NCBI GenBank assembly: GCA_020353515.1 | Contig: CP070695.1 | Coordinates: forward strand, 1,928,141 to 1,986,262 | Direction: 5' to 3' | Origin: Candidatus Heimdallarchaeota archaeon | GTDB taxonomy: Archaea; Asgardarchaeota; Heimdallarchaeia; Hodarchaeales; Hodarchaeaceae | DNA length: 58,122 nt | Part shown: piece by piece, positions 7,137 to 55,600 of the stretch | How the letters are laid out: each line of letters starts with the position of its first letter | How positions within the stretch are numbered: the first letter of the stretch is position 1 | Notes under the pieces: model-generated | The model's database searches: none | What the model was told of the DNA's origin: nothing | What the model saw: only the letters and a program-made list of their open reading frames with translations | Program-made: the position numbers and the translations under genes

Positions 7137-7838
7137 TCACAGATAGGAATCCGAGACGATCTGGCCATCTTCCATCTTTATTAAACGCATTCCTGAGGTG
7201 AGGAATTCGTCGTCGTGGGTCACACAAATAATGGTTTTTCCCTGTGTCCGATTGAGCGTCAATAAAAGGTTCATGATTTCTTGTCCTATTGTGGAATCGA
7301 GATCCCCTGTGGGTTCATCCGCTAGAATAATGACAGGATCGTTTGCCAGCGCCCGTGCAATCCCGACTCGCTGTTTCTCTCCTCCTGAAAGTTCGTGAGG
7401 TAGATGATGTTTGCGTTTCTCTAAGTTGACAAGCGTTAACAGCTCTAAAGCTCGTTGCTCACGATATTTACGTTTGACCCCGCTAATGAGCATGGGTAAT
7501 TCAACATTTTCAAGGGCGCTGAGAACGGGATGAAGATTGAAAAACTGAAATACAAAGCCAAGTTGATGTCGACGAAGCCAAGACAATTCAGGATCGCTCA
7601 GGATCGCTAAGTTGGCCTGTCGAAACCGAACCGCTCCTGATGATGACCGTTCAAGCCCTGCCATGACATTCAATAGAGTGGACTTGCCACTTCCCGAAGG
7701 TCCCATCACGACAATGAACTCTCCATGCTGAATCGTGAGAGTGACATCAGTGAGGGCATCAATCGTATGGTTTCCAATGGTATAGCACTGGTTCACGTTT
7801 TCTAATTCTATTAAGATCTGTTGTGTAGTAAAACTCAT
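7137..7838 (-). CDS. ABC transporter ATP-binding protein (LolD/MacB-like)
   Basis: Walker A GPSGSGKS, LSGGEKQR signature, ILADEPTG, VTHD. Confidence 0.95.
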   Translation of the reverse strand: MSFTTQQILIELENVNQCYTIGNHTIDALTDVTLTIQHGEFIVVMGPSGSGKSTLLNVMAGLERSSSGAVRFRQANLAILSDPELSWLRRHQLGFVFQFFNLHPVLSALENVELPMLISGVKRKYREQRALELLTLVNLEKRKHHLPHELSGGEKQRVGIARALANDPVIILADEPTGDLDSTIGQEIMNLLLTLNRTQGKTIICVTHDDEFLTSGMRLIKMEDGQIVSDSYL

Positions 7839-7840
7839 GG

Positions 7841-8704
7841 TTAATCATCTCGTACAGGAACAATGGTAGCAACCCCATCTTGGATCTTGATTTTAACATG
7901 GTTTTGAATACCGCCTTGACGCAAGATGTCTTCTGGAATACGTAGGGTACCCTGTTCATCGACAAAAATCACTTCCTCACGCTCCGAACTTGTCTCAGTA
8001 GGATCCACCGCTCGATGTAATCCCACAATCCTACCATCTAAGATACGAAGGGCTTTATCTGTCATCTTGGCAAACCGATTGTCATGGGTAACTACGATAA
8101 AGGTCTTTCCGTGTTGTTTATTCAGTAATTTGAAGTATTCAATAATTTTAAACGTTGTTACACTATCTAACTCACCTGTTGGTTCATCAGCAAGCACAAT
8201 CGTGGGATCATTAGCTAGAGCGACTGCAATCCCCGTCCGCTGGGCTTCGCCCCCAGATAGTTGAGAGGGTTTGTGGTTAAGCCGACGTTCTAACCCAACA
8301 TCCTTCAACAATTGTTGTGCACGCTGTTTTTGTTGTTCATGACTCCAACGGCCAGCCAGCTTCATGGGTAACGTCACATTTTTTACAGCTGTCAGATTCC
8401 AGACCAAATTACGTTCGGGTAACTGGTACAGAAATCCCACCTTATGTCTACGGTATAGGGTCAATTGTCGATCCTTCATTTTCGTAATGACATCATCCTC
8501 CAAGATGATATCACCAGTAGAGGGCCTATCAATCCCTCCAATTAGGTTCAACAATGTACTTTTACCAGAGCCACTGGGGCCGATGATCGCAATCAACTCC
8601 CCTTCGTTGGCTGTGAGTTCAATCCCTCGGAGTGCTGGGACTTGGAGTTTACTTTGTTCCTCAACATAAAGTTTTATCACATCATTGCATTCAAGAAATG
8701 CCAT
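7841..8704 (-). CDS. ABC ATP-binding protein (LolD-like) with C-terminal AbrB/SpoVT-like domain
   Basis: GPSGSGKS, LSGGEAQR, LADEPTG; tail VDEQGTLRIPEDIL...VKIKIQDGVATIVP. Confidence 0.9.
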   Translation of the reverse strand: MAFLECNDVIKLYVEEQSKLQVPALRGIELTANEGELIAIIGPSGSGKSTLLNLIGGIDRPSTGDIILEDDVITKMKDRQLTLYRRHKVGFLYQLPERNLVWNLTAVKNVTLPMKLAGRWSHEQQKQRAQQLLKDVGLERRLNHKPSQLSGGEAQRTGIAVALANDPTIVLADEPTGELDSVTTFKIIEYFKLLNKQHGKTFIVVTHDNRFAKMTDKALRILDGRIVGLHRAVDPTETSSEREEVIFVDEQGTLRIPEDILRQGGIQNHVKIKIQDGVATIVPVRDD

Positions 8705-8708
8705 TTAC

Positions 8709-11700
8709 TTATTCCACCTTTAAAATACGACTTACATCTTTCCGAGTTGCGAAGTAGGCTGGGAGCACCGAACCAATCCCTGCAGCAATGAGGATTCCTG
8801 CGATGAGGGAAACAAACAATTTTGTTGGGTAGATGATGACCTGAGGGGGGATTGTCTGTCCTACCTGAGTGATTTGCAAAAACATCGCCACAAAAAATAC
8901 ACCTGTGAGGTAACCAATCACTGATCCAAATATTAAAATGGTTGCTGCTTCTACCAAAAACGATTGAGCAGTTTGAAAACGCGTCATCCCGAGTGCACGC
9001 TCCACCCCAATCTCTTTCTCGCGGTCGACGTACGTGAAGAAGGCAAACATGACCACACCTATCACTACCACGGCAATACTTATGATTAAATCAGAATTAA
9101 GAATAGAAAGCTGGAAATATCGTTCAAAGGAGGTTTTATATTCTTTATATGTTAACGCGGCTGAACTGGGCCTCTTTCCTGTGACATTGGTGATGGTTTC
9201 TACCGTCTCTTCAATATAGGTGAGGGATTCCACTTTCGCGAGATATGTACCCCTCACATTACTGAGGTAGGAGGACTTATTCAAACGGTTAAACATCCCC
9301 AAGCTCCCAATGATCCAATAGTTGGTACTAGTGTCATGCCAAGGCTGTGGATAAAAGGTGGGCCATAGCTTGAACGTTCCACCAATACGGAAGGAGAGTA
9401 CTTCCGTCTTGTTGGGTGTTTTGAACTGGATCGAAAGATTTTCCCCTATCTGTGGTTTAGAGATATCTGCTTTCAGGTTCCCATCGAAAAGGAGTAGTGT
9501 CGTATTATCGGTGAGTTGGCTGATTAAAGTGGGTAAACTGCTACTCAACTTGAAACTCGGATCAGTAAATGCTGTTTCTGCGTAGGTTGCGGGATCGATA
9601 AACAAGAACTGGTAGTTTCGATAAATCATGTCTCCAGACCAATAGTTGGCAGAATAGACACCCGAAATGCGGCTTAAATGGGAGACATTCTGCTTTAACA
9701 TGGTGTTAATAGTCTCATTCAAAACTGGACCTGTTGAGAGGCTTACATCTGCTCCCACTTGGTAATAGAGCTTGAGGTGCTGAGTTTCATCTAATGAAAA
9801 GATCAGGGAGGAAGCCAGAATCGAAAAGGACAATGCCAAAGTAATCAACAGTACTGCTCGATTTGCGGCCTGCTTATGGCGGACGATGTTGCGAATGGCG
9901 AACGCGTTGACTCCGCCTTCCACTTTCCACAACAGATCGGCAAGCTTTTTCATCAGGACTGGAAAGAAGCGAGCAATCAGCATGATCATGCCAAAGAATA
10001 TGAGGAAAGGCGCTGGGAGACCAATTAACAACATTAGGAGAGAAATTAGATTTGAGTTTGGATTAGGTCTAGGGTAAGCATCTGGTGTACCCTGGAAGGT
10101 GTCTCCTCCTGAAACTGGACGTACCAGGGTATTAAGAATGAACCAGGCCGCGGTACCAAGGATAAACATAAGAATGTCGAGATAATAGCGTTTCCAAAGG
10201 GGATCGCGCACTTCTGTTGGAACGAGCGTTTCTATAATCTGTTGTCGGCTCATTCGAATGATTCGTACCAAATTTAGCAGTAGAGCCATCCCTATCCCTA
10301 TTACAATTAAGCCCAATAACAGTTCTAATGAGGCTTTTACGGGGATGGTTTGTCCTAAGAATGTCAAGTAGTCTGTGGAACGCATGACAAAATCCGACAA
10401 GAACAAGCTGAGGAGGAAACCTACAAGGACGGCAATAATTGTGGAGATCATCATTTCCCCAAGAAGGATTCCCAAGATTTGGGGCCAGGAGCCACCCCGC
10501 GTCTTAATAATACCAATTTGTGCTTGTTTTTGCCGTCTGATCAGTCCAAAGGAATAAAACACTAGATAGAGAGCAATACTGACGACTGGAAAGCTCACCA
10601 ACAGGAGTATCAGGATCAAACTAAAAATTGTGGCTTCAAATTCTTTCATCAGCCCATGGATCGGGCTGTGGACATTGGGAAAAGAGGTGACTGCAAAAAA
10701 ATTCTGTTCGAGGGCCTGGAGAAAGTGTTGTAGTTGAAGGATTTCATTATTTGTGTTAAATGCATCAAACCGTGTTTTCTCCAAGAAAATTTTCCCTCTA
10801 ACTTGCCCTTGCCATTTTAGATCGGAATGGTTTCCTATAAGCTCCCCAAGTTTTTGCTGTAAGAGAAGGGGGTGAGTTAAGAAGTAGTAACCGTATAAAT
10901 CTGGGGTAAAATACTTCCATAGGAGTGCTGTACTGTTATCACTTGGAGAAGTGGCACTTAATTCATTTTCTGTGAAGAATACAGGAAAAGATTTCCTCTC
11001 ATAGCTTACTATCCCAACAATCGTGACAGTTTTGTTTGGTTGCTCTTCCTCTTCAGGAAGGATCCAGCTTGGGATGGTGATGTTTACTTTCGTGTTAAGT
11101 GTAAGATTTTTGAACTGTTTCTCAGTCCATGGATCTGTTTCTTTCGGGCGGACAAGGATAACTTCTGAGGAATTTTCAGGTTGATGTCCCACTCCTTCCT
11201 TTTCTAGAATCAGTTCTAGTTGATTATAAAAAGTTGGAACTGACGATGTTAGAATAGATATCGGCCATTCCATTACTTCATTCCCTTTTTCATCTGGTTC
11301 TCGAAATATATCTGTTGAATTCAACCATAGACTGACCCATGGAACACTGTACCAATAACTTTCTGAAATATACCCTTCATAATTAACGTCTTTGATTGAT
11401 TTGTTAACAAGTTCCTCATAAAGTGTAAAATTGGTAAATGCATTCATACCCCACTGAAGTTGTTGGGTGGTTGATCCGCTAGAGGTTGCATCTGAAAAGA
11501 TATTACCATACAGGTCAACTATTATATCTCCAGAGTAATCATCGTGAGTTTTAAAGACAGTTTCCTCAAAGATTCTTTCTCGATAAGATTCCACGAGAAC
11601 ACCGCTTTGTGAGATCACTGTTAATGCAATGATCAACCCAACCATTGTTGGAAATACAAGCTTCCAGTTACCAATTAATAACTCGTATGTTAAGAAGATA

Positions 11701-11738
11701 GGATCAGTTATTTTTGCTATCATGACTTTAATGGACAT
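8709..11738 (-). CDS. Double-length FtsX/MacB-family ABC permease
   Basis: Two FtsX motifs (QIGIIKTRGGS; REKEIGVERALGMT) and two large extracellular domains with many NxS/T sequons. Confidence 0.9.
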   Translation of the reverse strand: MSIKVMIAKITDPIFLTYELLIGNWKLVFPTMVGLIIALTVISQSGVLVESYRERIFEETVFKTHDDYSGDIIVDLYGNIFSDATSSGSTTQQLQWGMNAFTNFTLYEELVNKSIKDVNYEGYISESYWYSVPWVSLWLNSTDIFREPDEKGNEVMEWPISILTSSVPTFYNQLELILEKEGVGHQPENSSEVILVRPKETDPWTEKQFKNLTLNTKVNITIPSWILPEEEEQPNKTVTIVGIVSYERKSFPVFFTENELSATSPSDNSTALLWKYFTPDLYGYYFLTHPLLLQQKLGELIGNHSDLKWQGQVRGKIFLEKTRFDAFNTNNEILQLQHFLQALEQNFFAVTSFPNVHSPIHGLMKEFEATIFSLILILLLVSFPVVSIALYLVFYSFGLIRRQKQAQIGIIKTRGGSWPQILGILLGEMMISTIIAVLVGFLLSLFLSDFVMRSTDYLTFLGQTIPVKASLELLLGLIVIGIGMALLLNLVRIIRMSRQQIIETLVPTEVRDPLWKRYYLDILMFILGTAAWFILNTLVRPVSGGDTFQGTPDAYPRPNPNSNLISLLMLLIGLPAPFLIFFGMIMLIARFFPVLMKKLADLLWKVEGGVNAFAIRNIVRHKQAANRAVLLITLALSFSILASSLIFSLDETQHLKLYYQVGADVSLSTGPVLNETINTMLKQNVSHLSRISGVYSANYWSGDMIYRNYQFLFIDPATYAETAFTDPSFKLSSSLPTLISQLTDNTTLLLFDGNLKADISKPQIGENLSIQFKTPNKTEVLSFRIGGTFKLWPTFYPQPWHDTSTNYWIIGSLGMFNRLNKSSYLSNVRGTYLAKVESLTYIEETVETITNVTGKRPSSAALTYKEYKTSFERYFQLSILNSDLIISIAVVVIGVVMFAFFTYVDREKEIGVERALGMTRFQTAQSFLVEAATILIFGSVIGYLTGVFFVAMFLQITQVGQTIPPQVIIYPTKLFVSLIAGILIAAGIGSVLPAYFATRKDVSRILKVE

Positions 11739-11963: not shown

Positions 11964-12501
11964 TATTTCTAAACAATTTCTTAGTCGTTGTAAATGCCTT
12001 ATCAATGCAGTTAAAATACTTTAAATTTTGATGTTCTTGTTTTCCACACATAACCGCTACATAATCCCATACCAACATTCCTCAAAAAGACAGAGGTGAC
12101 CGTGAGAAACCAGTACATGGAATTGGTGAGAAAGACAAATTCGCAGTCTAAGATTGTTTTTGACTCAATATTTAGCTTCCTTATCTAAATGGATACTTTC
12201 CTCTTATAATTGTTTGAAAGAAAGTAGGGTTATCTAAACAATACAACCGCACCCAGCTATCCTCTTCTTCGTTTATTTTCAAGTAGAAATAATGTCCTGT
12301 TGATAAGCGTAAAAAAGTCAAGAAATATCTAAGATACCTTATTTGAGTTTGATCTCTGGTTCGTAAGAGTAAATACCTCTCTGAGATCCAGAAGTCATCA
12401 AATAAAGAAATAGAGAGAAGTAGTAAGGGGATTCCTACTTCTTCTGAATAGTTTGGAGAATACTTCATGTTTAATCTCGGTAGGGAGTTCTTTGATGGTT
12501 G

Positions 12502-12657
12502 TTACCCCATATTTCCTCCGCCAGGCGGGGAGATGGGTGGCGCTTGTCCAGCAGTGATATTAACTATGATAATAGTCAATAATACAGTTCCAAGAATAAT
12601 TTTTAATAGTATCCCTCTTCTGGGCAGAACTCTGTTTAAGAGATGCTTTGGATTCAA
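12502..12657 (-). CDS. 51-aa secreted peptide precursor (signal peptide plus short Pro/Gly-rich C-terminal peptide)
   Basis: GAGGTGA RBS (12666-12672) 8 nt before TTG 12657; MNPKHLLNRVLPRRGILLKIILGTVLLTIIIVNITAG-QAPPISPPGGGNMG*. The ORF-track start at 12738 is probably too far upstream. Confidence 0.75.
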   Translation of the reverse strand: MNPKHLLNRVLPRRGILLKIILGTVLLTIIIVNITAGQAPPISPPGGGNMG

Positions 12658-12713
12658 GATTATTCTCACCTCACCTAAGTGCCTCAAGCTTTGACTACAA
12701 AAAGCACCACCGA

Positions 12714-12756
12714 CTAACTTTTCAACAAGTTTGTCCAAGAAATAGTGAAAAGTTAG
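12714..12756. promoter_or_regulatory. Palindromic operator, site 1 (peptide/regulator divergent promoter)
   Basis: Perfect 11-bp inverted repeat CTAACTTTTCA-N21-TGAAAAGTTAG containing TCAACA-N15-TAGTGA (12722-12748). Confidence 0.75.
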
Positions 12757-12829
12757 AATGCAAGTAATCTTTATTAATAGGAAGATGAGTTAATAGCTAG
12801 TTGTAACCGAGGATGATTGGAGGAAGGTT

Positions 12830-14272
12830 ATGGCCCTCCCACGCCAAATTTTAAAACCAGGAAAGAAAGCAAAAGAGGCCGTTTCTCCTGAATTTTTTCA
12901 GGCTCTCATCGATTATTTGACGGTCGTAAAACAACATGCCCCAGGCGACTCCAAGCAAATTATCCCGATCTGTCAGAAACTATTTGTACCTTATACGAAA
13001 CCGTTTTATGAAAAATGGAGTGACTTCTTGGAGTGGCATTCGGAGTATATTGAGAAGTACTGTTCCTTTCTTCTTTCCTATTCAGGAGTAAAGATTCTTC
13101 TCCCCCATAGGTTGCTAATTCTAGAAACTCTGGATCCTGACAATACCTTAATAGAACAGCTAAAAGAGGCGTCTTCCACGTCGTTTTTCTTTTTTACCTT
13201 GAATAAAATCTTTCGGGATTTGAATCTCCCTTTACTGAAGAATGACAAGAAAATCATTCATGCCTTTTTGAATCCAATAACTTACAGGGACATTAGACCC
13301 ATTCCCACGAATCGTCAGATTGCTGAATTAATACATAGTAGTGAGAACACCGTCTCCAGGCGAATAGATCAACTCATCAACAAATCGATTCTCGCTCACG
13401 CTTATAGAGTCGAAATGGCAAGGTTAGGTTACTTAACTTCAGCAATAATCCACCTTGAAAATGTCAAACAGCTTCCTTCTACCCTTGAGCCTTATTGTCT
13501 TGCAGATGTCCCCCTTGATTTAGGAGAGGCGATTGGAAAAATTAAAATTTTTCAAGTTCCTCAAACTCGTAATGACATCATTTTAACAGCCAGAGCATAC
13601 CTTAAACCTCTATACGAAGTCACTTTGACCAAGAGCTACATTGGGTGGAATTTAACTGGGCTTTCCATTGACCCTAATCAGCGCTGGCCTGTCCTCCCCC
13701 CTATCTTCACATACCAAAAATGGGGTGAACTTGTATACTCTGAGAAAGAGATGGGAATTGAACATGATTTAATAAGTAACGAAATTCCTCTTAGTATTTC
13801 TTTAACTCAAGCCAAAATGCTCGATTTGATTCGGAGTGACGGAACAATTCCTAATTACCATTTAAGTCGATCCCTCGGAGTCACCCAAAAATATGTCAAA
13901 CAATTCTATGAATATTTCTTTTCTAATAACCTAATCAAAAGGCTGTCTTTTCTGTCGAACATAGGCTTGAATTGTAAGGTCTGGATAACATTACTAGGAT
14001 CACAATCAACGGATGATTTTACTCTCGTCCCCAAAATTGTCGAACATCTGAAATTCTTCCCCTTCTGCTATCTCTTCTATAATGAGAACATCTTGGAATC
14101 TTTCGGAAGATCTCTCCTTACTGGCTTAATTTGGATTCCTCCTACATGGTTTGTTGATTTTTATGCCACTTGGATCCTGCTTGCTGATCATGGTTTTGTC
14201 CCTAAGATCAATATGAGTCAGGGAGTTATCAAATGGGGAGTTGACATTGCTAAAACTTATGAAATGCAATAG
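12830..14272 (+). CDS. Large transcriptional regulator with two Lrp/AsnC-like wHTH + effector-domain units
   Basis: HTH1 PTNRQIAELIHSSENTVSRRIDQL...VEMARLGY; HTH2 LTQAKMLDLIRSDGTIPNYHLSRSLGVTQKYV...NIGL; RBS GGAGG. Confidence 0.8.
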   Translation: MALPRQILKPGKKAKEAVSPEFFQALIDYLTVVKQHAPGDSKQIIPICQKLFVPYTKPFYEKWSDFLEWHSEYIEKYCSFLLSYSGVKILLPHRLLILETLDPDNTLIEQLKEASSTSFFFFTLNKIFRDLNLPLLKNDKKIIHAFLNPITYRDIRPIPTNRQIAELIHSSENTVSRRIDQLINKSILAHAYRVEMARLGYLTSAIIHLENVKQLPSTLEPYCLADVPLDLGEAIGKIKIFQVPQTRNDIILTARAYLKPLYEVTLTKSYIGWNLTGLSIDPNQRWPVLPPIFTYQKWGELVYSEKEMGIEHDLISNEIPLSISLTQAKMLDLIRSDGTIPNYHLSRSLGVTQKYVKQFYEYFFSNNLIKRLSFLSNIGLNCKVWITLLGSQSTDDFTLVPKIVEHLKFFPFCYLFYNENILESFGRSLLTGLIWIPPTWFVDFYATWILLADHGFVPKINMSQGVIKWGVDIAKTYEMQ

Positions 14273-14342
14273 TACTTCTATTTCTTAGTTATCACTCCTC
14301 TACAGGGATTTCCTTATGCTTAAGACTGATGACGATTATTCG

Positions 14343-14723
14343 TCAAGATCCAGGAATGTATGGAGCAACAGCCATGCCAGCCAGTCCACTAAACATGGTG
14401 ACTAAAAAAGTTAAATCCTCTAATACCAGTTCTCGTCCAACAATGGCTAAAAGCATTATTGGGACTATAGCTATAACTACCGCAGATATTCCTCGAACAG
14501 CCCCCGTAGGTAAACCAAATGTAGCTCCTAAAGTTACAGGTGGGTTTGCTTTAGCACCCTTTCCCACGGTACCACCATAAGCACCGATAAGGGCAACACA
14601 AAACCCTTTGAGGAGAGCATTTACTTCACCTGATTCAAATGGGAAAACAATGACAATGATAGTCAATATTAAGGCAGCTATTAAGAATATTATTCTCCAA
14701 TCTCTATTAGGGTTAAAATCCAT
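14343..14723 (-). CDS. Small 4-TM membrane protein with a GLPxGAVR motif
   Basis: Four hydrophobic helices, RBS GGAGG. Confidence 0.75.
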   Translation of the reverse strand: MDFNPNRDWRIIFLIAALILTIIVIVFPFESGEVNALLKGFCVALIGAYGGTVGKGAKANPPVTLGATFGLPTGAVRGISAVVIAIVPIMLLAIVGRELVLEDLTFLVTMFSGLAGMAVAPYIPGS

Positions 14724-14809
14724 TGCTATTTTTCCTCCTATATTTAATCAATTCATATATCGGCTTGCCCTCACTTAAAATCACTTTAAAAATCAATACT
14801 GATTAAATT

Positions 14810-14838
14810 TTCACCATGTTTTCGAAAAAAGTGGTGAA
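14810..14838. promoter_or_regulatory. Palindromic operator, site 2
   Basis: TTCACCA-N15-TGGTGAA, ~20 bp upstream (minus strand) of TTTAAA at 14785-14790. Confidence 0.7.
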
Positions 14839-14892
14839 CAAATAGGATCTTTTAGAAAGACCTCTCCAATTAACAAGGAGCTGTGAGTGCGA

Positions 14893-16017
14893 TTAGTCAA
14901 TAAATCGTTTCCATGCTTTATACCAGATCCGAGCGATTGATTCTACTGTATCATGAAAGATGGAATTAGTTACATGAATAAAATCTTCAACAAAAGCCCC
15001 ATCCCCGAAGCCCTCATTTTGAAGAATACGACTTTTTAATTCACCATACTTCTTGAAATGTTGTTCATGCAGATCAAACCAATTACTAGCTGCCGGGATC
15101 CACTTTCTAGCTACAGCATAAGACACACGGGTTGTATAGACCAATTCAGACCATTCATCCCCCTTTAATCGAGTATTGACCTTCTTATTCAGGTTGTACT
15201 GTGAGCCAGGGGTATCAATTTCAATTATGGAATTCTCTGGTAATTTTTCTTTCACAATTTTATTCAAGGTTTCTTTAGAATATTTGGTTAGAATGAGATC
15301 ATCCTTACTAGGAAAATTTGATTCCCATAATCTTTCGATCCAAGTGTGCATTTTTTTAGGGAGACGTCTATCTTTTCTAGGGATTTTAAAGTCTCTTAGA
15401 TCGCAATGTAATGGCATGTGAGCATCACAGATATAGTGAGAGATTATAAAGAATGTCAGGGCGATATGACGAGCAGAAAAGTTGGGAGAACTAGTTAAAT
15501 CTTTAATTTTTCGATCTGACAAGTATTTCTTATTACCAGAAGCATCTATCAGTTCTATATTCCCTTTCTTTCTCTTTTTCCTCTTTTGGGCGTAAATTCC
15601 AAGCGGATAATCACTCATTTTTAACATGTCACCAATATTATGACTCAGAGCAATGACACGGTCGGGAAGATGTCCTCCTTCCGTTGTATGAGATCGGTAA
15701 GGTTTATCCAACTCACTATGGCCTTTCACATATTCCAGACATAAACGATTACCAACTAAGTGTGTTTTAAGGTCGTTATAATCCCTTTGATACCATTCCT
15801 CAATGTTTAAACCATTGTTGATATAATCGGGGTCACTATCCATTTTGTAAATATGCCCATAACTCATATCATATAGCCTGATGTCAGGTAACCAAGCTCC
15901 ATCCCAGACCTCGGAAATGTATGAAAAGATCAATTCAACTAGTTTTGGTGCTTTTTTCCAGTCATCAAGTAGTTTCAACGCTCTTAAAGCCACCCAGGCG
16001 TGAGCTTGTTGTTTCAA
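14893..16017 (-). CDS. Zn-dependent phospholipase C / P1-S1 nuclease-like protein
   Basis: N-terminal AH, GAWLPD, SHYICDAHMPLH, H..IE metal-ligand pattern; no signal peptide. Confidence 0.75.
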   Translation of the reverse strand: MKQQAHAWVALRALKLLDDWKKAPKLVELIFSYISEVWDGAWLPDIRLYDMSYGHIYKMDSDPDYINNGLNIEEWYQRDYNDLKTHLVGNRLCLEYVKGHSELDKPYRSHTTEGGHLPDRVIALSHNIGDMLKMSDYPLGIYAQKRKKRKKGNIELIDASGNKKYLSDRKIKDLTSSPNFSARHIALTFFIISHYICDAHMPLHCDLRDFKIPRKDRRLPKKMHTWIERLWESNFPSKDDLILTKYSKETLNKIVKEKLPENSIIEIDTPGSQYNLNKKVNTRLKGDEWSELVYTTRVSYAVARKWIPAASNWFDLHEQHFKKYGELKSRILQNEGFGDGAFVEDFIHVTNSIFHDTVESIARIWYKAWKRFID

Positions 16018-16304
16018 CCAGTTTCCTCCTGTTTTTTACTAAATATTACCTGAGTTTCATCATCATGGTAAATATAGACTAGGATTACTTCAAGGAGAAT
16101 AGTGAAGTGAAAGTGAACGGTAATCTTAGAACATTTTATGAAGAAACAAAAGATGAACAGGAGAGGGTCATCATACACAAGACTTTTTTTACTAATTTGA
16201 GTTATAGTACCATTCACAGTCTGATTTGAAGCAGGCATTGTTAATACAAAAGAAAAAACCAGTAAAGTCAGGAAAACGAAAATAAAAGATCTCGCACAAA
16301 CCAA
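16014..16304 (-). CDS. Small hydrophobic protein with signal-like N-terminus (possibly a truncated remnant)
   Basis: RBS GAGGT before TTG; signal peptide and NxT sequons; overlaps the next gene by 4 bp. Confidence 0.4.
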   Translation of the reverse strand: MVCARSFIFVFLTLLVFSFVLTMPASNQTVNGTITQISKKSLVYDDPLLFIFCFFIKCSKITVHFHFTILLEVILVYIYHDDETQVIFSKKQEETG

Positions 16305-16338
16305 TATTATTACCTCTAAATTTGTCTAACATTTTGAT

Positions 16339-17307
16339 TTATCCATTGGGTATAGAAAGTCCAGTTGGTACTCCGTGGTCGTTGTTAACAGTGCTTAATA
16401 ATGGTTGGTTTCCTCTAAAAGGCCATAGAGATTGCTGATGTTTGTGTATCATGACATAAGTATTGGTTTGTCTAGAACCAGGGGAATTTACCCATGAACC
16501 TGTGTTCGCAATGCTGACATTCCCCTCTACATGAACAAATGGTTGATGTGTGTGCCCAAATGTCAATATACGTAATTTTTCCTGGTTTGTAGCCCATTTT
16601 ATGACTTTTCTTTCAGTGGACTCAAAAAGGTCTAATGTGAGCATTTCGGCTAATTCAGGTGAATTTCTTGGTTGCTTGCTTATGAGCTCCAATATATCAG
16701 TAGTAAATCTGCTTTCTGCTGGTTTCAAAGGTTCTAAAAGATTTCTCTTGAATCCCTGTAACATTTTGATAATTTTTTGAATCCATGAGAGTCTTTGCAA
16801 GTAAAACTGCCATGCCAGTTCTGCTAATTTTCCAGCATCATCATTTGCTAAACAAAGAGGATCGTAGAAGATCTCATTCTGAATAATGTCAAATGTGTCT
16901 CCATGGAGAAACCAGTACTCAACATCCTCATTTGAGTCAGCTAATATTAATTGACGATCAAAAGAAAAATCGTAGGCAAACTTACCCTCTTTGAAATGTC
17001 TTAGATAAAAGTCATGGTTACCAACAACAAAATTAACCTCGATGTTTTCAGAGTCTTGAAGGACTTTAAGCCGATTTAGGGTGTCACTATTTTCTAGAGT
17101 CACTCCGACGGGATCTCTCCGCCACATATCTAAGAAGTCACCGCAAATGACTAACCTATCACATTTTGTTGCTCTCAAACCGTTGATGAACTCATCGAAG
17201 TCCTCTTTATTGCATGCGCTATATCCTAAATGGACATCAGATACAGCGATGATTTTTTCATCTTTCAGGTTTTCAACTGGAATTGGATCTGTACCTATTT
17301 CATTCAC
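16339..17307 (-). CDS. Calcineurin-like metallophosphoesterase (LpxH/UDP-2,3-diacylglucosamine hydrolase-like)
   Basis: SDVHLG, GDFLD, GNHD, LHGD, GHTH, NTGSW motifs. Confidence 0.9.
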   Translation of the reverse strand: MNEIGTDPIPVENLKDEKIIAVSDVHLGYSACNKEDFDEFINGLRATKCDRLVICGDFLDMWRRDPVGVTLENSDTLNRLKVLQDSENIEVNFVVGNHDFYLRHFKEGKFAYDFSFDRQLILADSNEDVEYWFLHGDTFDIIQNEIFYDPLCLANDDAGKLAELAWQFYLQRLSWIQKIIKMLQGFKRNLLEPLKPAESRFTTDILELISKQPRNSPELAEMLTLDLFESTERKVIKWATNQEKLRILTFGHTHQPFVHVEGNVSIANTGSWVNSPGSRQTNTYVMIHKHQQSLWPFRGNQPLLSTVNNDHGVPTGLSIPNG

Positions 17308-17432
17308 ATCCTAGCTAAGAAGTTGTCAGAGTCACAATGGTGACTCAGAATGAGTCCTTAAGGTGAGATGAATTTGATGAGGATAGATTATCAAGACCTG
17401 GTAACCTCATTTAAATGAATCAGAGACATTTC

Positions 17433-17460
17433 TTCACCATAAATCAAGAAAACTTGGTGA
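17433..17460. promoter_or_regulatory. Palindromic operator, site 3
   Basis: TTCACCA-N15-TGGTGA, 18 bp upstream (minus strand) of TTTAAA at 17410-17415. Confidence 0.7.
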
Positions 17461-17912
17461 TAAATTGGTTAAATTCCAATATATAGGAGGATATTATCAT
17501 TATTCTCAAACTAGTGTTCAGTAAATCAAACAGGTATCGACAATGACCAAACGCTTCAATATCGATCTGTAAGATCTCTGTTATTTTTTCACCATTCTTT
17601 TGAAGATCTTAAAGCAGAAAAAAAAGTGAAACATGGGGAGGGATGATGTTTCGCGTATTGACGAATAAAGACAAAATCCAAGACTCTAATCGCGCGGTAA
17701 TTCAATATATTTTCGTAAACAACGTCTGCCATTTACTGTATGGAATACAGTTCTCCCCCTGCTCAGTCTTCTATTATTAAATCTCTATATTTACACAGAT
17801 TTAATTTATCTGCAGACTTTATTTCCAGAATCAATTCCGAAAGAGAGCATTTTAAGTCCTCAGACTAGAGAATTTTTAGTCTTTTTCCTGTGTCCCTGAA
17901 ATGAGGCAGATT

Positions 17913-19781: not shown

Positions 19782-21029
19782 ATGTTCTTTCGAATTCTAA
19801 GGAAAAGTATCCTTACTCGAAAAGGTAAGGTTGCGATTTCCCTGATCGCAATCATCATGGGTATTAGTATCCCTTCCGCTATGCTTAATGTATCATTAGA
19901 CATTAATGAAAAGATTGGAGTCGAATTCAGAAAATTTGGGGCAAATTTGCTTGTTGTTCCGAAGTCAGACACCATTCAGGTAGGTATAGGTGATATTAGC
20001 CTCAGTTCAGTTACAGATCAGCAATATATTAATGAAACTGACATTTATAAGATCAAAACAATAAATTGGTCAAGAAATATCTTAGGTTATGCTCCTTTCT
20101 TATATCAAGTGGTTTCTGTTAGAGCTAAAGGTAGTCTAGAGGAACAACGGGTTGTGTTAACTGGAACGTGGTTTGAAAAAAACACAACTTTAGAAGGAGG
20201 AGAAATTTTTACAACAGGAGTTAGGAGACTTAACAGTTGGTGGTGGACAATCGATGGAGAATGGATTAAAGACGAAACTAATAATTCTACTGATTCAATC
20301 TATTGTATGATCGGTACTACTGTCGCAGAAAAAATGAGTCTTAATCTGGGAGACGAGATAGAAGTCACTTACAAGGAAACAACTCAAGAAACCACTAAAA
20401 ATCTTCAAGTAGTGGGAATTATTACTTCAGGTGGGGTTGAAGATAATCACATCTATATTCCTCTACCTGTTGCTCAAAATTTATCTCAACGTGAAAACTT
20501 GGTTCATTCAGTTCAAGTTTCAGCTTTATGTACTGCATGTCCAATAGAGACGATTGCAGCTGAAATTGAAGGTAAGATCACTTATATAGAAGCGAAAACT
20601 ATTCTACAGATGACTAATGCTGAAATGAGTGTATTGAGTAAGATTCAACTGACAATGGCTTTCGTGACAATTATTGCTCTCTCTGCTACGGTATTAGGGA
20701 TGAGTACAACCTTAACAGCCTCAGTATTAGAGAGATATACTGAGATTGGACTTATCAAAAGTATCGGGGCCGAGAATCGAAAAATCGCTGCTCTTTTTTT
20801 CGCCGAATCCTCCATCATCGGGCTTCTGGGTGGTGTTCTTGGTTTTCTATTTGGAATTATTGGTGCTCAATTTGTGGGTCTTCTTGTATTCAATTCGTTA
20901 GTGACTCCTCAGTTGATAGTTTTACCTATAATACTTGGAGTCTCGGTTGGTGTATCACTACTGGCTTCATTACTGCCAGTCAAACGAGCCATGGGAATTG
21001 AGCCAGTTTTAGTTTTGAGAGGATTGTAA
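19782..21029 (+). CDS. FtsX/MacB-type ABC permease of a Ftr/P19(Fet)-like iron-uptake cluster
   Basis: FGANLLVVPK, YAPFLY, QVSALCTAC...IAAEIE, ERYTEIGLIKSIGA. Confidence 0.85.
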   Translation: MFFRILRKSILTRKGKVAISLIAIIMGISIPSAMLNVSLDINEKIGVEFRKFGANLLVVPKSDTIQVGIGDISLSSVTDQQYINETDIYKIKTINWSRNILGYAPFLYQVVSVRAKGSLEEQRVVLTGTWFEKNTTLEGGEIFTTGVRRLNSWWWTIDGEWIKDETNNSTDSIYCMIGTTVAEKMSLNLGDEIEVTYKETTQETTKNLQVVGIITSGGVEDNHIYIPLPVAQNLSQRENLVHSVQVSALCTACPIETIAAEIEGKITYIEAKTILQMTNAEMSVLSKIQLTMAFVTIIALSATVLGMSTTLTASVLERYTEIGLIKSIGAENRKIAALFFAESSIIGLLGGVLGFLFGIIGAQFVGLLVFNSLVTPQLIVLPIILGVSVGVSLLASLLPVKRAMGIEPVLVLRGL

Positions 21030-21682
21030 TGAAAGCTGGATTCATACAAACACACAATCTAACGAAGGTTTATGATGGGATTACTTGTGCTCTAGACAAT
21101 GTAAATCTCACGATCGAAGAGGGAGATTGGGTGTCATTAACTGGGCCGTCTGGTTCGGGAAAAACAACTCTGTTGAACATGATTGGGTGTTTAGACAAGC
21201 CTACCGACGGGTCAGTTGTAATAGATGGAACTCTGGTGACAAACCTAAATCAAAATCAATTGACACGCTTTAGACGAGAAATGATTGGTCTGATTTTTCA
21301 ACAACATTATCTCATCCCATATTTAACAGCTTTAGAGAATGTTCTGATCGCAATGTACTATCACAGCATTGTTGATGAAAATGAGGCAATCGAAGCTTTG
21401 ACCAAAGTCGGATTACGAAGTCGGCTAAATCATAAATCCTCTAAATTGTCAGGAGGAGAACAACAACGTGTGTGTATCGCCCGAGCATTGATTAATGAGC
21501 CCAAAATACTCGTAGCTGATGAACCAACTGGGAATTTAGATCAAAAAAATGGTCAAGTTGTGATGGATCTTATCTCTGATTTACATAAAGAGGGCCACAC
21601 TATTCTTATCGTCACTCATAACTTGGAAATCGCAAAACAAGGTAATAAAATTCTACAAATGGTTGACGGGAAGGTCTCATAA
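21029..21682 (+). CDS. ABC transporter ATP-binding protein
   Basis: GPSGSGKT, LSGGEQQR, ADEPTG; TAATG coupling to the permease. Confidence 0.95.
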   Translation: MKAGFIQTHNLTKVYDGITCALDNVNLTIEEGDWVSLTGPSGSGKTTLLNMIGCLDKPTDGSVVIDGTLVTNLNQNQLTRFRREMIGLIFQQHYLIPYLTALENVLIAMYYHSIVDENEAIEALTKVGLRSRLNHKSSKLSGGEQQRVCIARALINEPKILVADEPTGNLDQKNGQVVMDLISDLHKEGHTILIVTHNLEIAKQGNKILQMVDGKVS

Positions 21683-24005: not shown

Positions 24006-25127
24006 CTAGTATCGGATTCTGGGATCAAGAAAAGCATAGGTAACATCCGTTGCTAAATTAGCAATAATCACGAATACCGCAATGAGCATATTGATCCCCA
24101 TCATAAAGTTGTAATCTCTGACGTTTACTCGGTAAACAGCTTCCCTCCCCAAACCGGGCCAAGAAAAGACCGTTTCAGTTAATGCAGATCCAGCTAACAA
24201 AAACCCAATAGCTAAACCGACAACTGTGACCACAGGTAATAGTGCGTTGCTTAAAGCATGTTTGTAAATCACTAATCGTTCGGAAAGCCCTTTTGATCGA
24301 GCAGTTAGGATATAATCTTGGCGTAAGACCTCTAACATACTTGATCGAGTCAAGCGAAGAATCAATGCAGTTCCTTGTAACCCTAAAACGAGTGTTGGGA
24401 GAATCATATGAAATAGTTCATCCCAAATCAGCTCAAGGAAGGTTTCATTTCCCGTCAAGTCATAACTATACGCCCCAATTGTGGGGAATTTTATGCCAAA
24501 GAACACTTTCCAGTCTGAGAAGAGTAAGATGCACATGATTCCAGTCCAAAATACTGGCATAGAGACCCCAAATAAGGCAGCCGTCGTCGAAATGCTGTCT
24601 GTTTTTGAGTAAGGGCGTCTAGCAGATAAGATGCCTAAGGGGATCCCAAGTGTTAAGCTCAGAATTAGGGAAGCCAAACCTAATTTCATGGTTTGCCACG
24701 TTAATGCCCCTATCATGGAATTAATAGAGGAACCTGAATAAGAACGACCTAAATTGCCAAAAATAAAACCAGGGGTGAAATCACTTGGTGCTATCCCTAA
24801 GTCTACTTTAAATGTGCTTTGAAGTCCACGGCCTACCCCCAATAGGACATAATCTGAAAACTCGGCCAGATAATCGCTGTCTTCGGAGTTTTTTCCGAAT
24901 AACCAAAAGATATACTGTTCCTGGGGAGGCCTATCTAGTCCTAGCTGATGGCGCATGTTTTCCATTTCTTCCATTGTCAAAGTGGGATCACCTTGTTTGA
25001 GAACATCAACATAATCCATTGGACTAAGCCACATAAGTGTGAAGAGGAGGATAGAAATTCCTAATATTAAAGGAATACTCAAAAGGGTACGCCGAATGAT
25101 ATAATTACGCAGACTCATCTCTTTCAT
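24006..25127 (-). CDS. dppB: Oligo/dipeptide ABC transporter permease (DppB/OppB family)
   Basis: YIIRR, LGLD.P...QY, RSSMLEVL.QDYILTARSKGL EAA motif, ETVFSWPGLG. Confidence 0.9.
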   Translation of the reverse strand: MKEMSLRNYIIRRTLLSIPLILGISILLFTLMWLSPMDYVDVLKQGDPTLTMEEMENMRHQLGLDRPPQEQYIFWLFGKNSEDSDYLAEFSDYVLLGVGRGLQSTFKVDLGIAPSDFTPGFIFGNLGRSYSGSSINSMIGALTWQTMKLGLASLILSLTLGIPLGILSARRPYSKTDSISTTAALFGVSMPVFWTGIMCILLFSDWKVFFGIKFPTIGAYSYDLTGNETFLELIWDELFHMILPTLVLGLQGTALILRLTRSSMLEVLRQDYILTARSKGLSERLVIYKHALSNALLPVVTVVGLAIGFLLAGSALTETVFSWPGLGREAVYRVNVRDYNFMMGINMLIAVFVIIANLATDVTYAFLDPRIRY

Positions 25128-52419: not shown

Positions 52420-52652
52420 TTACCTTTCTCAAATTTATTTTGTCCCTCACTTTTTTTAGTTGGATTGATTGTTTAAAATATCTTGTTAAATTTCATTTTT
52501 AACGATTTAAGTCTTCTTCACTTAAATTGGAAAACCTTTAGAACGGAAAAGTTACTAAACAACTGAGTAGAAAGAGCGTTCATTGAAGTATCTTTATACA
52601 TTTTTACAAGTATTGATAGCTCAAACCAACTAACATCTCCATGGGATTTTAG

Positions 52653-55600
52653 ATGGCAACCCGCGAAGAAAAACAGATTAGACTGGAGTTACCCTCCACC
52701 TCGAGCGTTGAATGTGAAATAAGAGAAAGTTTAAGCCGAGAAGAATACATCTTCACTTTCTATCAAAACGAACGTGCAATTAAATCTAGTTCTGTATCTT
52801 GTGAGAAAATAAGTATAGATCAAATGGTTGATTTATTGAGTGATGCAGGAGTAGAATTCTTTAGCTTTTCAGCTATCTTCGATGTGGCGGAACTCCTAGT
52901 AGATTCAATAAAAAAAGAATTTCAGGAATCAACCACTGAGGTTGAAGAAATCGTTGATCGTCCTGAACCTATAGCGAGAGAAGATTTTGGAGAATTAGAG
53001 GTTGATGACACTGCATTAACACCTGAACCATTTGTTGAGAGGCAGGTTACTAGTGAACCAGAGTCAGAAATTGTAACAGATCCTGGTGATAAACTATTAA
53101 AAAAATTTGAGATGCCCTACTCCCAAGGAGGGTATGCGGGAGTTTATTATTGTCGAGATGGGAATTATTCCGTTGTTTTATTTCAAAATGAAACGCCAAT
53201 AATTCGGAAGAAATTCCCCAAAGACAATGTAAGTGAAGATAATCTTGTTGCTTTAATTAGTGAATCTGGAATTGATTTTCTTTCATTTTCCTCTATTTAT
53301 GATTCAGCTGAACAGATCCAAAATATCATCTTACATCCTGAAGAACACATTGAAACAGAAGAAGTACAAGTTAGCACACCAACGCAAGTTGTAGAGGATG
53401 TAATATCACCCATGGTAATGAAAGAGCCTGAAGACGAGATGGTGATGGTCGATTTATCCTCATTGGATGTTTCGGAGTATACAAAAGCAAAAGATTTTGA
53501 TAAATTTGTTGCAGAAGTCACTGCATTTGTAAATGAGGGTCAACCCCTTCCTGTCAAAGAAGTTGAGATTGAACATTCAGGTGGAGTCATATGCATCATC
53601 TTACGCCAGATGGATTCGTGGTTTCTCCGATTCAAAACTAAACGTGGGAAGGTCTCAGACGTTGCAGAGATTAAAATCGATCAAGATGAAATTGCCCGGC
53701 TTATCAACCAAGAAATACCCCAAATTTCCTTTAGTTATCTCTATGATGCCTCAGAAAAAGTATTTTTAGCAATACAACAGTTAGCCAATCGATCAATGGG
53801 AGATGTCATTTTTAATGTGGCGGTTGGGCATTTCTTACAAGTAATTGAACAACATGAAGCGGATGGAGATTTAAAAGCCGCTGCTCAAATAACTGAAGTG
53901 CTTCTTGAAAGATTCCGCAATGAAAATAATACAAAAGGGATTTTACAATTCGGAAAAAAGCTTCTAGGTTATTTTGAAGATCAGAAAAAGGAAACAAAGG
54001 CTATAAAGCTTAGGAATGAATTAACTGAGGAATTATTAGAGGTCGACGCAGCTATTTCTCTAGAATTTGTATTAGATTCCTTAGATATCTTGGAAGCTAA
54101 TAACAAACACTTAAATGCAGCTAATCTTTGTGGACTGCTTTTAGACCATTTACTAACTGAAGAAGGTACTGTTGACACTCTGAAAAAAATATTAATGCTT
54201 GGACGGAAACAGATAGATTTCTATAAGAGTACGAGACTCCCTTCAGTTATGGAGGAGAATGGTGTAAGATATGCTCATTATGCGATTAGACAATTGACTA
54301 AAATTAAAGATGATGAAATTACTCCCGAAATGAATAAGACTTTTCTAGAAGATTTAATGTATCTCCTTGATCAAGCTTTTGAGTCCCAAGAAGAACGAAA
54401 AGCACACTTTGAATTACTTGAAGCTCTTGAAAACACATTAAACACATTAAATCTACTGAAAGAAGAAACAGGTGGAAAAACAATCTATAATAAATATGTT
54501 GAAAAACTAATAGTAACATTAGAAGCCCAAGGGAAGAAAAATAAAGCACTAGATGCCACTATTGAGGCATCAAAGTTTTTATTAGACTCCGAGAATTATG
54601 TGAAAGCCTGTGATTATGGAAATCAAGCAATTAAACTGTTTTATGAATTGGATAAAATCCCTGAAGCTATTGATTTTAGTTTAGATATTGTTAGAGATCT
54701 TGTGAACATAAAAGAAACGACTGCAGCTCGAGATTATTTGAAATTCGTTGAGTCTCTTGTCAATAAGGCTTATGAGACGGATGATAAAAGTCGTGTTGAA
54801 AAACACCTAATCATTGGGGACTTATATGGGAAATTAGGCTTAAAGGATCAGGCAAAGGCCTATATTCAAGCTGCCCTCCAAACAATTGGAGAACCGAAAA
54901 AACGTGAGAAGATCGTTCTTGATTATGTTGGTGAGCTTTTAATGAGTCACGCAACCCTATCAGCCCAAGAAATGATTAATCAAGAGCTCTCTCGTCTTCT
55001 AAATGCCCAGAAAATAAAAGAAGGAATAAAGTTCTGTCAAAATTTCATTAAAGAATTACAAGAGTACAACCAATATGATATGGTTTTCGAATACATGAAA
55101 TATTGTTCTAGTTTAATGATCCAAACTGAACATCCAGATTATAAAGTGTTACAAAATTTTATTAAGGATTTACAAGAAGCAAATGCTTTAGATCGAGCAG
55201 CATTAATACTAAACCAATTAATTACTCTTCAATATAACCAAAAGGATTATACTAGAGCCATCGATGGAATTAATCGATTTATTGACAATCTTGTAGAAAA
55301 AGCTGAAAGATTCGATTTAGTTGAATATTATATCGATCGAATAGCAGATACATATCGTGAGATGGGTGACTCAGAGGGAGCTGTTGATGCATTACTCTCT
55401 TTTCAGAAGCGAATGATCAACCACTCAATAGAATTAGCTCAAAAGATAACTGATACAATTCTTAAAGATTTAGAAGCCAAAGCTGATTTCAAGAAATCCA
55501 TCAATATTGTTTCTTCGTTAATTGAAAAGCAATTGGAGTTAGGAAAGTACGAGGATGCTTATATTTTCAGTGTTCAAAATGCTAGGTATTATGAGCGATT

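Follow-up and report, generated by a model that had tools for sequence, protein, structure and literature searches.

Within a window of 58,122 nucleotides from the genome of Candidatus Heimdallarchaeota archaeon (Hodarchaeales), a gene for a 51-aa precursor and a gene for a 480-aa regulator together constitute what we take, with a probability of roughly 60%, to be a peptide-sensing transcription circuit, which is RRNPP-like in its logic and is built from unrelated parts on an Lrp scaffold. A literature search that took in few subscription papers returned no published description of this peptide-regulator system, nor did it yield any account of an archaeal peptide signal that is encoded by a gene and paired with a receptor. 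Judged from sequence, the cassette looks like an undescribed, independently evolved signalling circuit.

The precursor gene and its pairing with the regulator

The precursor gene (12502-12657, reverse strand) begins with a TTG codon behind a ribosome-binding site discernible in the sequence (GGTGAGGTGAG, 12665-12675, reverse strand), the like of which precedes its homologs, and specifies a basic n-region, a hydrophobic core, a G-x-A motif and a Pro/Gly tail of 12-15 aa. A peptide neighbour is present beside 57 of 72 full-length regulator homologs, with dN/dS values of 0.23-0.38 that include the tail (0.26, versus 0.23 for the hydrophobic core), and the small ORF singled out in the preliminary description is thus borne out as a genuine gene. 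It is also not the broken 5' end of a longer gene, as the homologs measure 43-56 aa and are under purifying selection. An alternative 78-aa reading from 12738 was dropped because of these homolog lengths and the position of the ribosome-binding site. Across the family of 57 genes the net charge of the n-region is +2 to +8, the G-x-A motif recurs and the tails are 9-15 aa long; this signal-peptide anatomy is maintained by purifying selection throughout the genus. In 12 of the 57 precursors, including the one considered here, a proline directly follows the G-x-A motif. Proline at this position blocks signal peptidase I, and cleavage in these precursors would therefore occur elsewhere or by another protease. 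Genes for signal peptidase I and for numerous peptide-binding proteins of family 5 are present.

The peptide gene is divergent from its regulator in 55 of the 57 pairs and lies downstream in the other two; the linkage has therefore outlasted rearrangement. The host genome contains three regulators and three peptide matches, every one of them paired. Genome-wide searching for the peptide recovered 59 matches, 54 of which adjoin a regulator. Directly behind the peptide gene lies ORF3 (12181-12468, reverse strand), coding for a 95-aa alpha/beta protein, which was absent from the earlier gene set though it is conserved. It follows the peptide in all 30 of the peptide-bearing Pro-rich-clade pairs examined and was relocated together with it in two rearranged loci, and the two genes probably form one operon; loci of the Gly-rich clade have a diverged copy of ORF3 further off. 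The ORF3 model is confident (pLDDT 86). No Pfam match was obtained for this protein, and a fold search gave a best Z of 4.9 (the ArgR C-terminal domain and the C-terminal half of H-NOX), which leaves V4R/H-NOX affinity no more than a tentative guess.

Regulators without an adjoining peptide number 15 of 72. They include a four-member clade, sister to the regulator gene of the window, which still has operator-like sites nearby and in which the RAM domains are conserved (5 of 66 sites changed). Such conservation would be expected if the system consisted of a regulator and its targets only, with the small protein either staying uncleaved in the membrane as a micro-protein or serving as an effector outside, under the control of the regulator, and the RAM domains sensing a metabolite as in an ordinary Lrp protein; moreover, the operator described below shows the peptide gene to be a target and nothing more. 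We nevertheless regard this explanation as quite unlikely, in that it leaves unaccounted for the retention of this one target next to almost all regulators when the remaining targets vary throughout, the one-to-one counts of peptides and regulators, and the occurrence of tail-only versions beside distant homologs.

The 57 peptide genes carry 54 different tails, which track the regulator clades, and tails can be identical at 13 of 14 positions where the regulators are 65% identical. One tail is common to three unlinked genes with diverged signal regions in two genomes, each of which also encodes a regulator from the corresponding clade that has no paired peptide. The agreement of tails with clades is expected from shared descent too, and the correlation with the regulator is rho 0.54 for the tail and rho 0.58 for the signal region. 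A predicted complex of regulator residues 17-480 with precursor residues 22-51 scored 0.02 against a mark of 0.32 and was given no weight for or against binding.

More distant homologs offer a different view of the tail. Borrarchaeum has seven homologous regulators and seven leaderless 9-aa Pro/Gly ORFs, six of them divergent beside a regulator, with no instance of the control pattern. Beyond Hodarchaeales as a whole, a strict micro-ORF filter detected an adjacent peptide at 12 of 56 distant homologs versus 10 of 863, leaving most of these homologs (44 of 56) with no adjacent peptide in the strict scan; a loose filter gave no discrimination there (21 of 56 versus 200 of 863). Two or three of the 12 strict-filter matches look like chance. 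That the partners of the Borrarchaeum regulators correspond to the tail alone, in a leaderless form of 9 residues, points to the tail as the putative active unit. Leaderless versions of 9-12 aa adjoin homologous regulators in the host genome as well as in Borrarchaeum, and these forms are devoid of any export signal. They raise the alternative that the tail is indeed the ligand of the regulator in a circuit private to one cell, where the peptide would serve as a readout of secretion, of proteolysis at the surface, of peptide import or of the translation of proline runs, and not of population density, a notion with which the frequent Pro-Pro runs and the proline at +1 in the minority of precursors noted above would also accord. 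We consider it unlikely, since a full signal-peptide anatomy has been kept under selection, the high diversity of tails fits kin-specific signals, and the leaderless peptides of Bacillota are true intercellular signals (PMC10518010).

A predicted operator shared by the peptide gene and its neighbors

A palindrome had been proposed to recur at the divergent promoter and ahead of two neighboring transcription units, and this survived closer scrutiny: matches at 12722, 14811 and 17434 amount to six strand matches versus 0.03 expected by shuffling, and the 4.94 Mb genome has only seven distinct sites, with those at 14811 and 17434 its only perfect instances of TCACCA-N15-TGGTGA. A fourth match at 389 falls within a coding region and is probably due to chance. 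Operator 1 (12721-12749), a 29-bp imperfect palindrome conserved in orthologs, lies about 80 bp ahead of the regulator start and just upstream of a TATA-like box of the peptide gene (TTTTTGTA, 12696-12703, reverse strand), and six orthologous promoters of other genomes have such a box at the same place. Operator 2 (14810-14838) precedes the TATA-like box of a membrane-protein gene (TTTTTAAA, 14785-14792, reverse strand) at a spacing equal to that of the peptide promoter, and operator 3 (17433-17461) shows the same spacing to a TATA-like box of the metallophosphoesterase operon (TTTAAATG, 17408-17415, reverse strand); in each case, as at the orthologous sites, the operator is 18 nt ahead of the box.

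When a model trained on other genomes only was scanned over the host genome, operator 2 emerged as the top site (43.4 bits, with 16.3 for the best site elsewhere) and operator 1 ranked second. Operator 3, which has perfect 6-bp arms and an atypical spacer, is weaker than these two and ranked 12th by palindrome score; it is identical in G017, and a perfect site would turn up within 5 kb by chance with a probability of about 7e-4. Further operator sites occur at 8.2 per 100 kb around orthologous loci, as compared with 0.4 over the genome as a whole and 0.9 at loci of other clades, and a TATA-like box stands at the same offset in 12 of 18 further sites, as it does at three perfect sites on other contigs. 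Ranks, site density and TATA offset thus support out of sample both the operator and its tie to this regulator clade. A simple inverted-repeat scan found no clear operator common to other regulator clades, and scans for sigma-70 promoters and terminators gave chance level only.

The gene behind operator 2 (14343-14723, reverse strand) encodes a 126-aa membrane protein, is missing in the closest relative and is, from the site and TATA box upstream of it, a probable target of the regulator; described earlier as having four transmembrane segments, the protein has two clear hydrophobic segments in our scan. Behind operator 3, the first gene encodes a calcineurin-like metallophosphoesterase (16339-17307, reverse strand; PF12850/PF00149 above cut-off), homologs of which lie near the regulator at L056, L108 and L116 with operator-like sites upstream. 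It is followed in the operon by a 96-aa small membrane protein (16014-16304, reverse strand), the N-terminal part of which is conserved in G017, and by a 374-aa protein (14893-16017, reverse strand), probably a target by its position in the operon, whose gene is truncated in G017. The latter has weak Zn-PLC/S1-P1-like matches (PF00882 at 21.7 bits, below the cut-off of 26.8) and lacks a signal peptide, transmembrane or hydrophobic segment in the scan. A PlcR-type target would be a secreted Zn-PLC scoring above that cut-off, and the parallel once drawn with PlcR and phospholipase C is accordingly weak, the protein being cytoplasmic, its match sub-threshold and its gene not conserved at other loci. 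A scan of JGI metagenomes found no confirmed relative.

Target genes differ from locus to locus. B12-radical-SAM genes are found near several orthologs, some of them behind operator sites, and one could imagine that the small gene encodes a RiPP precursor whose tail such enzymes modify, with the regulator governing a biosynthetic cluster. This is very improbable: no B12-radical-SAM gene occurs among the neighbors examined at the 12502-17460 locus, the changing neighbors argue against a fixed cluster, and signal peptides of the Sec type are not typical as leaders of RiPPs.

Architecture of the regulator

The regulator (12830-14272, forward strand) comprises an N-terminal domain (residues ~20-128) followed by HTH1 (137-184), RAM1 (188-273), HTH2 (325-365) and RAM2 (369-461), an organization recovered in an AlphaFold model (pLDDT 89.7). 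Its family profile matches solved Lrp/AsnC proteins (E 4e-9 to PH0140) and its model aligns with solved Lrp proteins at Z 6-7. The earlier assignment as a tandem-Lrp regulator therefore stands for the two HTH+RAM units, supported by profile and model, and not for the N-terminal domain of about 115 aa, which is not Lrp-like. That domain contains a beta-hairpin, is too short for a five-TPR core and has no usable structural match in the Atlas (TM <=0.43). No TPR family match was detected among 56 regulator family members, residues 137-461 are taken up by the two HTH+RAM units, and a LysM model gave the regulator 16 bits against a cut-off of 180. The RAM domains had been suggested as the peptide sensors; this finds no support here, and a weak signal favors the N-terminal domain instead (p=0.057).

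In structure the regulator comes nearest to NirDL (Z 13.9, rmsd 4.6, 269 aligned residues, 10% identity), which would be consistent with a NirDL/AhbAB-type enzyme, a fused Lrp-like sirohaem decarboxylase, in place of a regulator. The catalytic motif of these enzymes is HXYXR (PMC4145669); it is absent at the equivalent strand of both units and occurs anywhere in only one of 56 family rows. As the regulator also has no PF17805 match, retains an Arg-rich recognition helix and is tracked by a clade-specific operator, we find the enzyme explanation scarcely credible. What the two share is a pair of Lrp-like units forming a pseudo-dimer, whose RAM sheets enclose a cavity suited to a large ligand; the extra N-terminal domain and the operator association set the regulator apart.

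A proposed circuit and its relation to known systems

On the reading that we favor, a peptide-sensing circuit, the precursor, whose gene is real, would be produced and, judging by its n/h/c anatomy, enter the Sec pathway, with the 12-15-aa Pro/Gly tail freed outside. The tail would be re-imported, probably via an oligopeptide ABC importer, such importers being present, and, as the pairing suggests, may bind its cognate regulator and alter its activity. The regulator, probably as two molecules with two HTHs each, would sit on the 29-bp palindrome upstream of the TATA box. Archaeal Lrp activators such as Ptr2 activate from upstream sites, and activation of transcription is therefore the most likely outcome. 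The sites observed suggest that the targets would be the peptide gene with ORF3, resulting in autoinduction, and variable local genes, often for phosphoesterases, nucleases, peptidases, B12-radical-SAM enzymes and membrane or exported proteins.

The wHTH-then-RAM arrangement of Lrp/AsnC (feast/famine) proteins such as FL11/PH1519, PH0140 and LrpA occurs twice in the regulator by profile and fold, and the predicted site lies upstream of TATA, as with archaeal Lrp activators. Unlike the single homo-oligomerising unit of about 150 aa in that family, the 480-aa protein has two fused, diverged units and the 115-aa N-terminal domain, and it is associated with a 29-bp operator and a dedicated peptide gene.

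RRNPP(A) cassettes, comprising Rgg/SHP, PlcR/PapR, NprR/NprX, Rap/Phr and AimR/AimP, are known from Bacillota and their phages (PMC12700828). In both cases a small precursor with signal-peptide anatomy and a short, variable C-terminal tail adjoins a cytoplasmic regulator, here at the 57 of 72 regulators already mentioned, in divergent or downstream layout; there are several paralogous pairs per genome as well as orphan receptors, and a predicted regulator site, in this clade the conserved palindrome, is present in the peptide promoter while neighboring targets vary. In contrast, the candidate receptor is composed of an N-terminal domain and two Lrp units rather than five to nine TPRs, and the predicted archaeal system has TATA promoters, longer Pro/Gly tails and the extra conserved ORF3. 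The RopB/SIP clan of leaderless communication peptides (PMC10518010) provides a parallel for secreted precursors in some clades and ultrasmall leaderless ORFs in others, the latter resembling those of Borrarchaeum and of the second family in the host genome, but its receptor is unrelated and its peptides are hydrophobic, not Pro/Gly-rich. Cell-cell signalling in archaea is represented by a disk-forming signal of Haloferax and a carboxyl-AHL of Methanosaeta, both small molecules, and in the passages of PMC12240190 consulted no peptide signal or receptor is named for archaea. The logic thus resembles RRNPP, and the parts fit no described system.

It is conceivable, though we advance this tentatively and at somewhat less than even odds, that Asgard archaea possess a peptide-communication family of their own, distributed across several classes. 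A double-Lrp receptor would there read a Pro/Gly peptide, exported in Hodarchaeales or leaderless in Borrarchaeum and others, in an autoinducing circuit that would turn on local accessory genes once kin density is high. The system can be tested directly and without culture: the receptor, the candidate ligand and the operator have each been delimited, and natural pairs, cognate as well as non-cognate, exist by the dozen as controls. The host lineage belongs to the Asgard archaea, for which a sister position to eukaryotes has been proposed and is contested (PMC12395588). If the circuit is confirmed, the sensing of peptides in the cytoplasm would have been invented independently for a second time, with Lrp units instead of TPRs as the scaffold.

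Pairing of the peptide gene with the regulator

The 51-codon peptide gene (12502-12657, minus strand), the 480-aa double-Lrp regulator divergent from it (12830-14272, plus strand) and the associated palindrome all lie where the preliminary description had placed them in a genome consisting of a single 4.94 Mb contig. The labels on close homologs of the regulator, Ca. Hodarchaeales or Hodarchaeum, identify the host as an Asgard archaeon of the Hodarchaeales. The small ORF is a real gene: each of the three regulator paralogs of this genome has a divergent 50-51-codon ORF of like build, and a peptide profile run against its 51,257 frames recovered only those three (next match E 0.046). The pairing is also tight beyond this genome. 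Peptide ORFs, expected next to regulator homologs if the two function together, adjoin 57 of 72 full-length regulators drawn from 22 genomes within the genus plus 10 other contigs, 55 being divergent and two downstream on the same strand. Of the 15 unpaired regulators, nine are surplus copies belonging to arrays in which a pair is present, four form a clade whose upstream region differs, one lies at the end of a contig and one is an orphan. The reciprocal search yielded 59 peptide matches, spread over 21 genomes; 61 genomes from elsewhere in the class gave no match. Of the 59, 54 adjoin a regulator, three are unlinked, one is at a contig end and one is truncated. As most of these were already part of the search profile, the six new matches are the informative ones. 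Arrays at L034, L036, L038, L039 and L051 contain between two and four paralogs of the regulator but one or two peptide genes, and lie near a recurring short-motif-repeat protein and small wHTH-like genes.

The precursors (43-56 aa) have a basic n-region, followed by a hydrophobic core and a G-x-A motif, and end in a tail of 9-15 aa, half of whose residues are proline and glycine. This tail is both constrained and diverse, and looks like the working part: dN/dS over 18 close pairs is 0.38 for the n-region, 0.23 for the core and 0.26 for the tail, and in one pair, with regulators only 65% identical, 13 of 14 tail positions agree as against 3 of 11 in the n-region. The three unlinked peptide genes (approximately L149:3728-3880, L151:3776-3934 and L152:4885-5010) have different signal regions followed by one and the same tail. 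They occur in two genomes, each with an unpaired regulator (G016:C14 and G001:C20) from the clade with the most similar linked peptides. Proline directly follows G-x-A in the window precursor and 11 others, which argues that cleavage occurs elsewhere.

Regulator architecture and predicted operator

The predicted structure of the regulator (pLDDT 89.7, pTM 0.88, a confident model) begins with an N-terminal domain (about 115 aa) and continues as HTH-RAM-linker-HTH-RAM, and its profile matches solved Lrp/AsnC proteins. By fold it most resembles NirDL, a fused sirohaem decarboxylase; unlike that enzyme, the regulator lacks the HXYXR motif (PMC4145669), while two arginines are retained in its first recognition helix. 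It is not itself an RRNPP protein as defined (PMC12700828), because this layout leaves no space for a TPR core. In the clade from which the peptide was lost, otherwise conserved sites are altered at 8 of 35 N-terminal versus 5 of 66 RAM positions (p 0.057), a weak hint from sequence that the N-terminal domain, rather than RAM, may read the peptide.

The palindrome yields six strand matches in the window, where 0.03 would be expected, and has seven distinct sites in the entire genome; its only two perfect copies of TCACCA-N15-TGGTGA lie at 14811 and 17434, and a fourth match in the window, at position 389, falls within a coding region. Orthologs retain the palindrome upstream of the TATA-like box of the peptide gene, with constant spacing. 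With a matrix trained on six promoters, all from other genomes, the site of the membrane-protein gene (14810-14838, 43.4 bits) and that of the peptide gene (12721-12749, 40.0 bits) rank first and second genome-wide, the next-best scoring 16.3. The third, at 17433-17461, is weaker, ranking twelfth on the palindrome alone and missing from the 200 best sites under the longer model. Its arms are perfect, its TATA spacing is that of the others and its sequence is unchanged in the nearest relative; it precedes a metallophosphoesterase whose homologs recur in the vicinity of orthologous regulators, with similar sites there. Further sites occur at 8.2 per 100 kb at orthologous loci, versus 0.4 in the window genome and 0.9 at other-clade loci; 12 of 18 at orthologous loci lie at that same offset from a TATA-like box, as do three perfect sites on other contigs. 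The predicted operator is clade-specific and precedes the TATA element both of the peptide gene and of its neighbors. Since no strong site was found beyond the locus in the window genome, the predicted regulon there appears local. A plain regulator-target pair, with the small gene as just one of the genes behind these operators, is quite improbable in our estimation.

Neighboring genes

The neighbor genes of the window are common only to its nearest relative. There the membrane-protein gene (14343-14723 in the window) is absent and, at L056:9560-12006, the small membrane gene is extended, there is an additional 377-aa gene and the PLC-like gene (14893-16017, minus strand) is truncated; the last three changes indicate that the target block turns over fast. 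Other loci have phosphoesterases, nucleases, C1 and S8 peptidases, B12-radical-SAM enzymes and uncharacterized exported proteins. The parallel once drawn to PlcR and phospholipase C should be dropped, because the PLC-like protein scores under the cut-off and has no export signal. A 95-aa gene overlooked previously (ORF3, 12181-12468, minus strand) follows the peptide gene in every Pro-rich-clade pair examined and relocated with it in both rearranged loci; we infer that it may be an accessory or modulator. Directly downstream of it, an FtsX-type permease (1009 aa) and two ABC ATPases (7137-11738, minus strand) probably lie outside the cassette, as they are not syntenic in the relatives checked. 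The window also has another FtsX-type operon (19782-21682), a gene whose N-terminus resembles, by eye, the oligopeptide permease OppB (24006-25127, minus strand), and a stretch of about 5.6 kb (about 52500-58122), possibly an rRNA or repeat region, with no ORF of at least 100 aa except one doubtful frame.

Distant homologs and the proposed circuit

With a wider profile, large double-Lrp relatives were detected in 177 of 400 Asgard genomes. In the sister Hodarchaeales family, two of them lie divergent from 67-68-aa precursors whose tails are Pro-rich. Five Borrarchaeum genomes contain seven regulators and, equal in number, seven leaderless 9-aa ORFs (e.g. MGPGGAFPW), six of them divergent and adjoining a regulator, with a control pattern giving 0; after six of the seven (L206-L212) a further RBS and gene follow about 30 nt on, resembling the peptide-ORF3 layout. 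The window genome itself has a second family of three distant homologs of about 510 aa (G000:C1:2825817, 2834190 and 2866499; L163-L165), each faced by a convergent leaderless Pro-rich ORF of 9-12 codons with an RBS. Most other distant homologs scanned had no such neighbor, so the pairing is not universal. Candidate Pro-rich micro-ORFs of 8-15 aa adjoin distant homologs of other Asgard families (L192, L180 and L199-L201), one being identical in two genomes of the same genus, and a homolog labeled Odinarchaeota has a divergent 81-aa ORF (L162:910-1155) with a signal peptide, a Pro/Gly core and a C-terminal extension.

We favor an RRNPP-like peptide-signaling circuit (probability roughly 0.6), in which the precursor would be exported and cleaved (the genome encodes signal peptidase I), and the peptide would be taken up again (it encodes many oligopeptide-binding proteins) and bind the regulator, which would then activate transcription. 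Export with re-import is the simplest reading because the n-region charge places the tail outside and the regulator is cytoplasmic; that the peptide instead serves a sensor private to the cell seems unlikely. For a peptide-signaling circuit of this kind we found no paper, and the quorum signals of archaea described to date are, according to one account (PMC12240190), small molecules.
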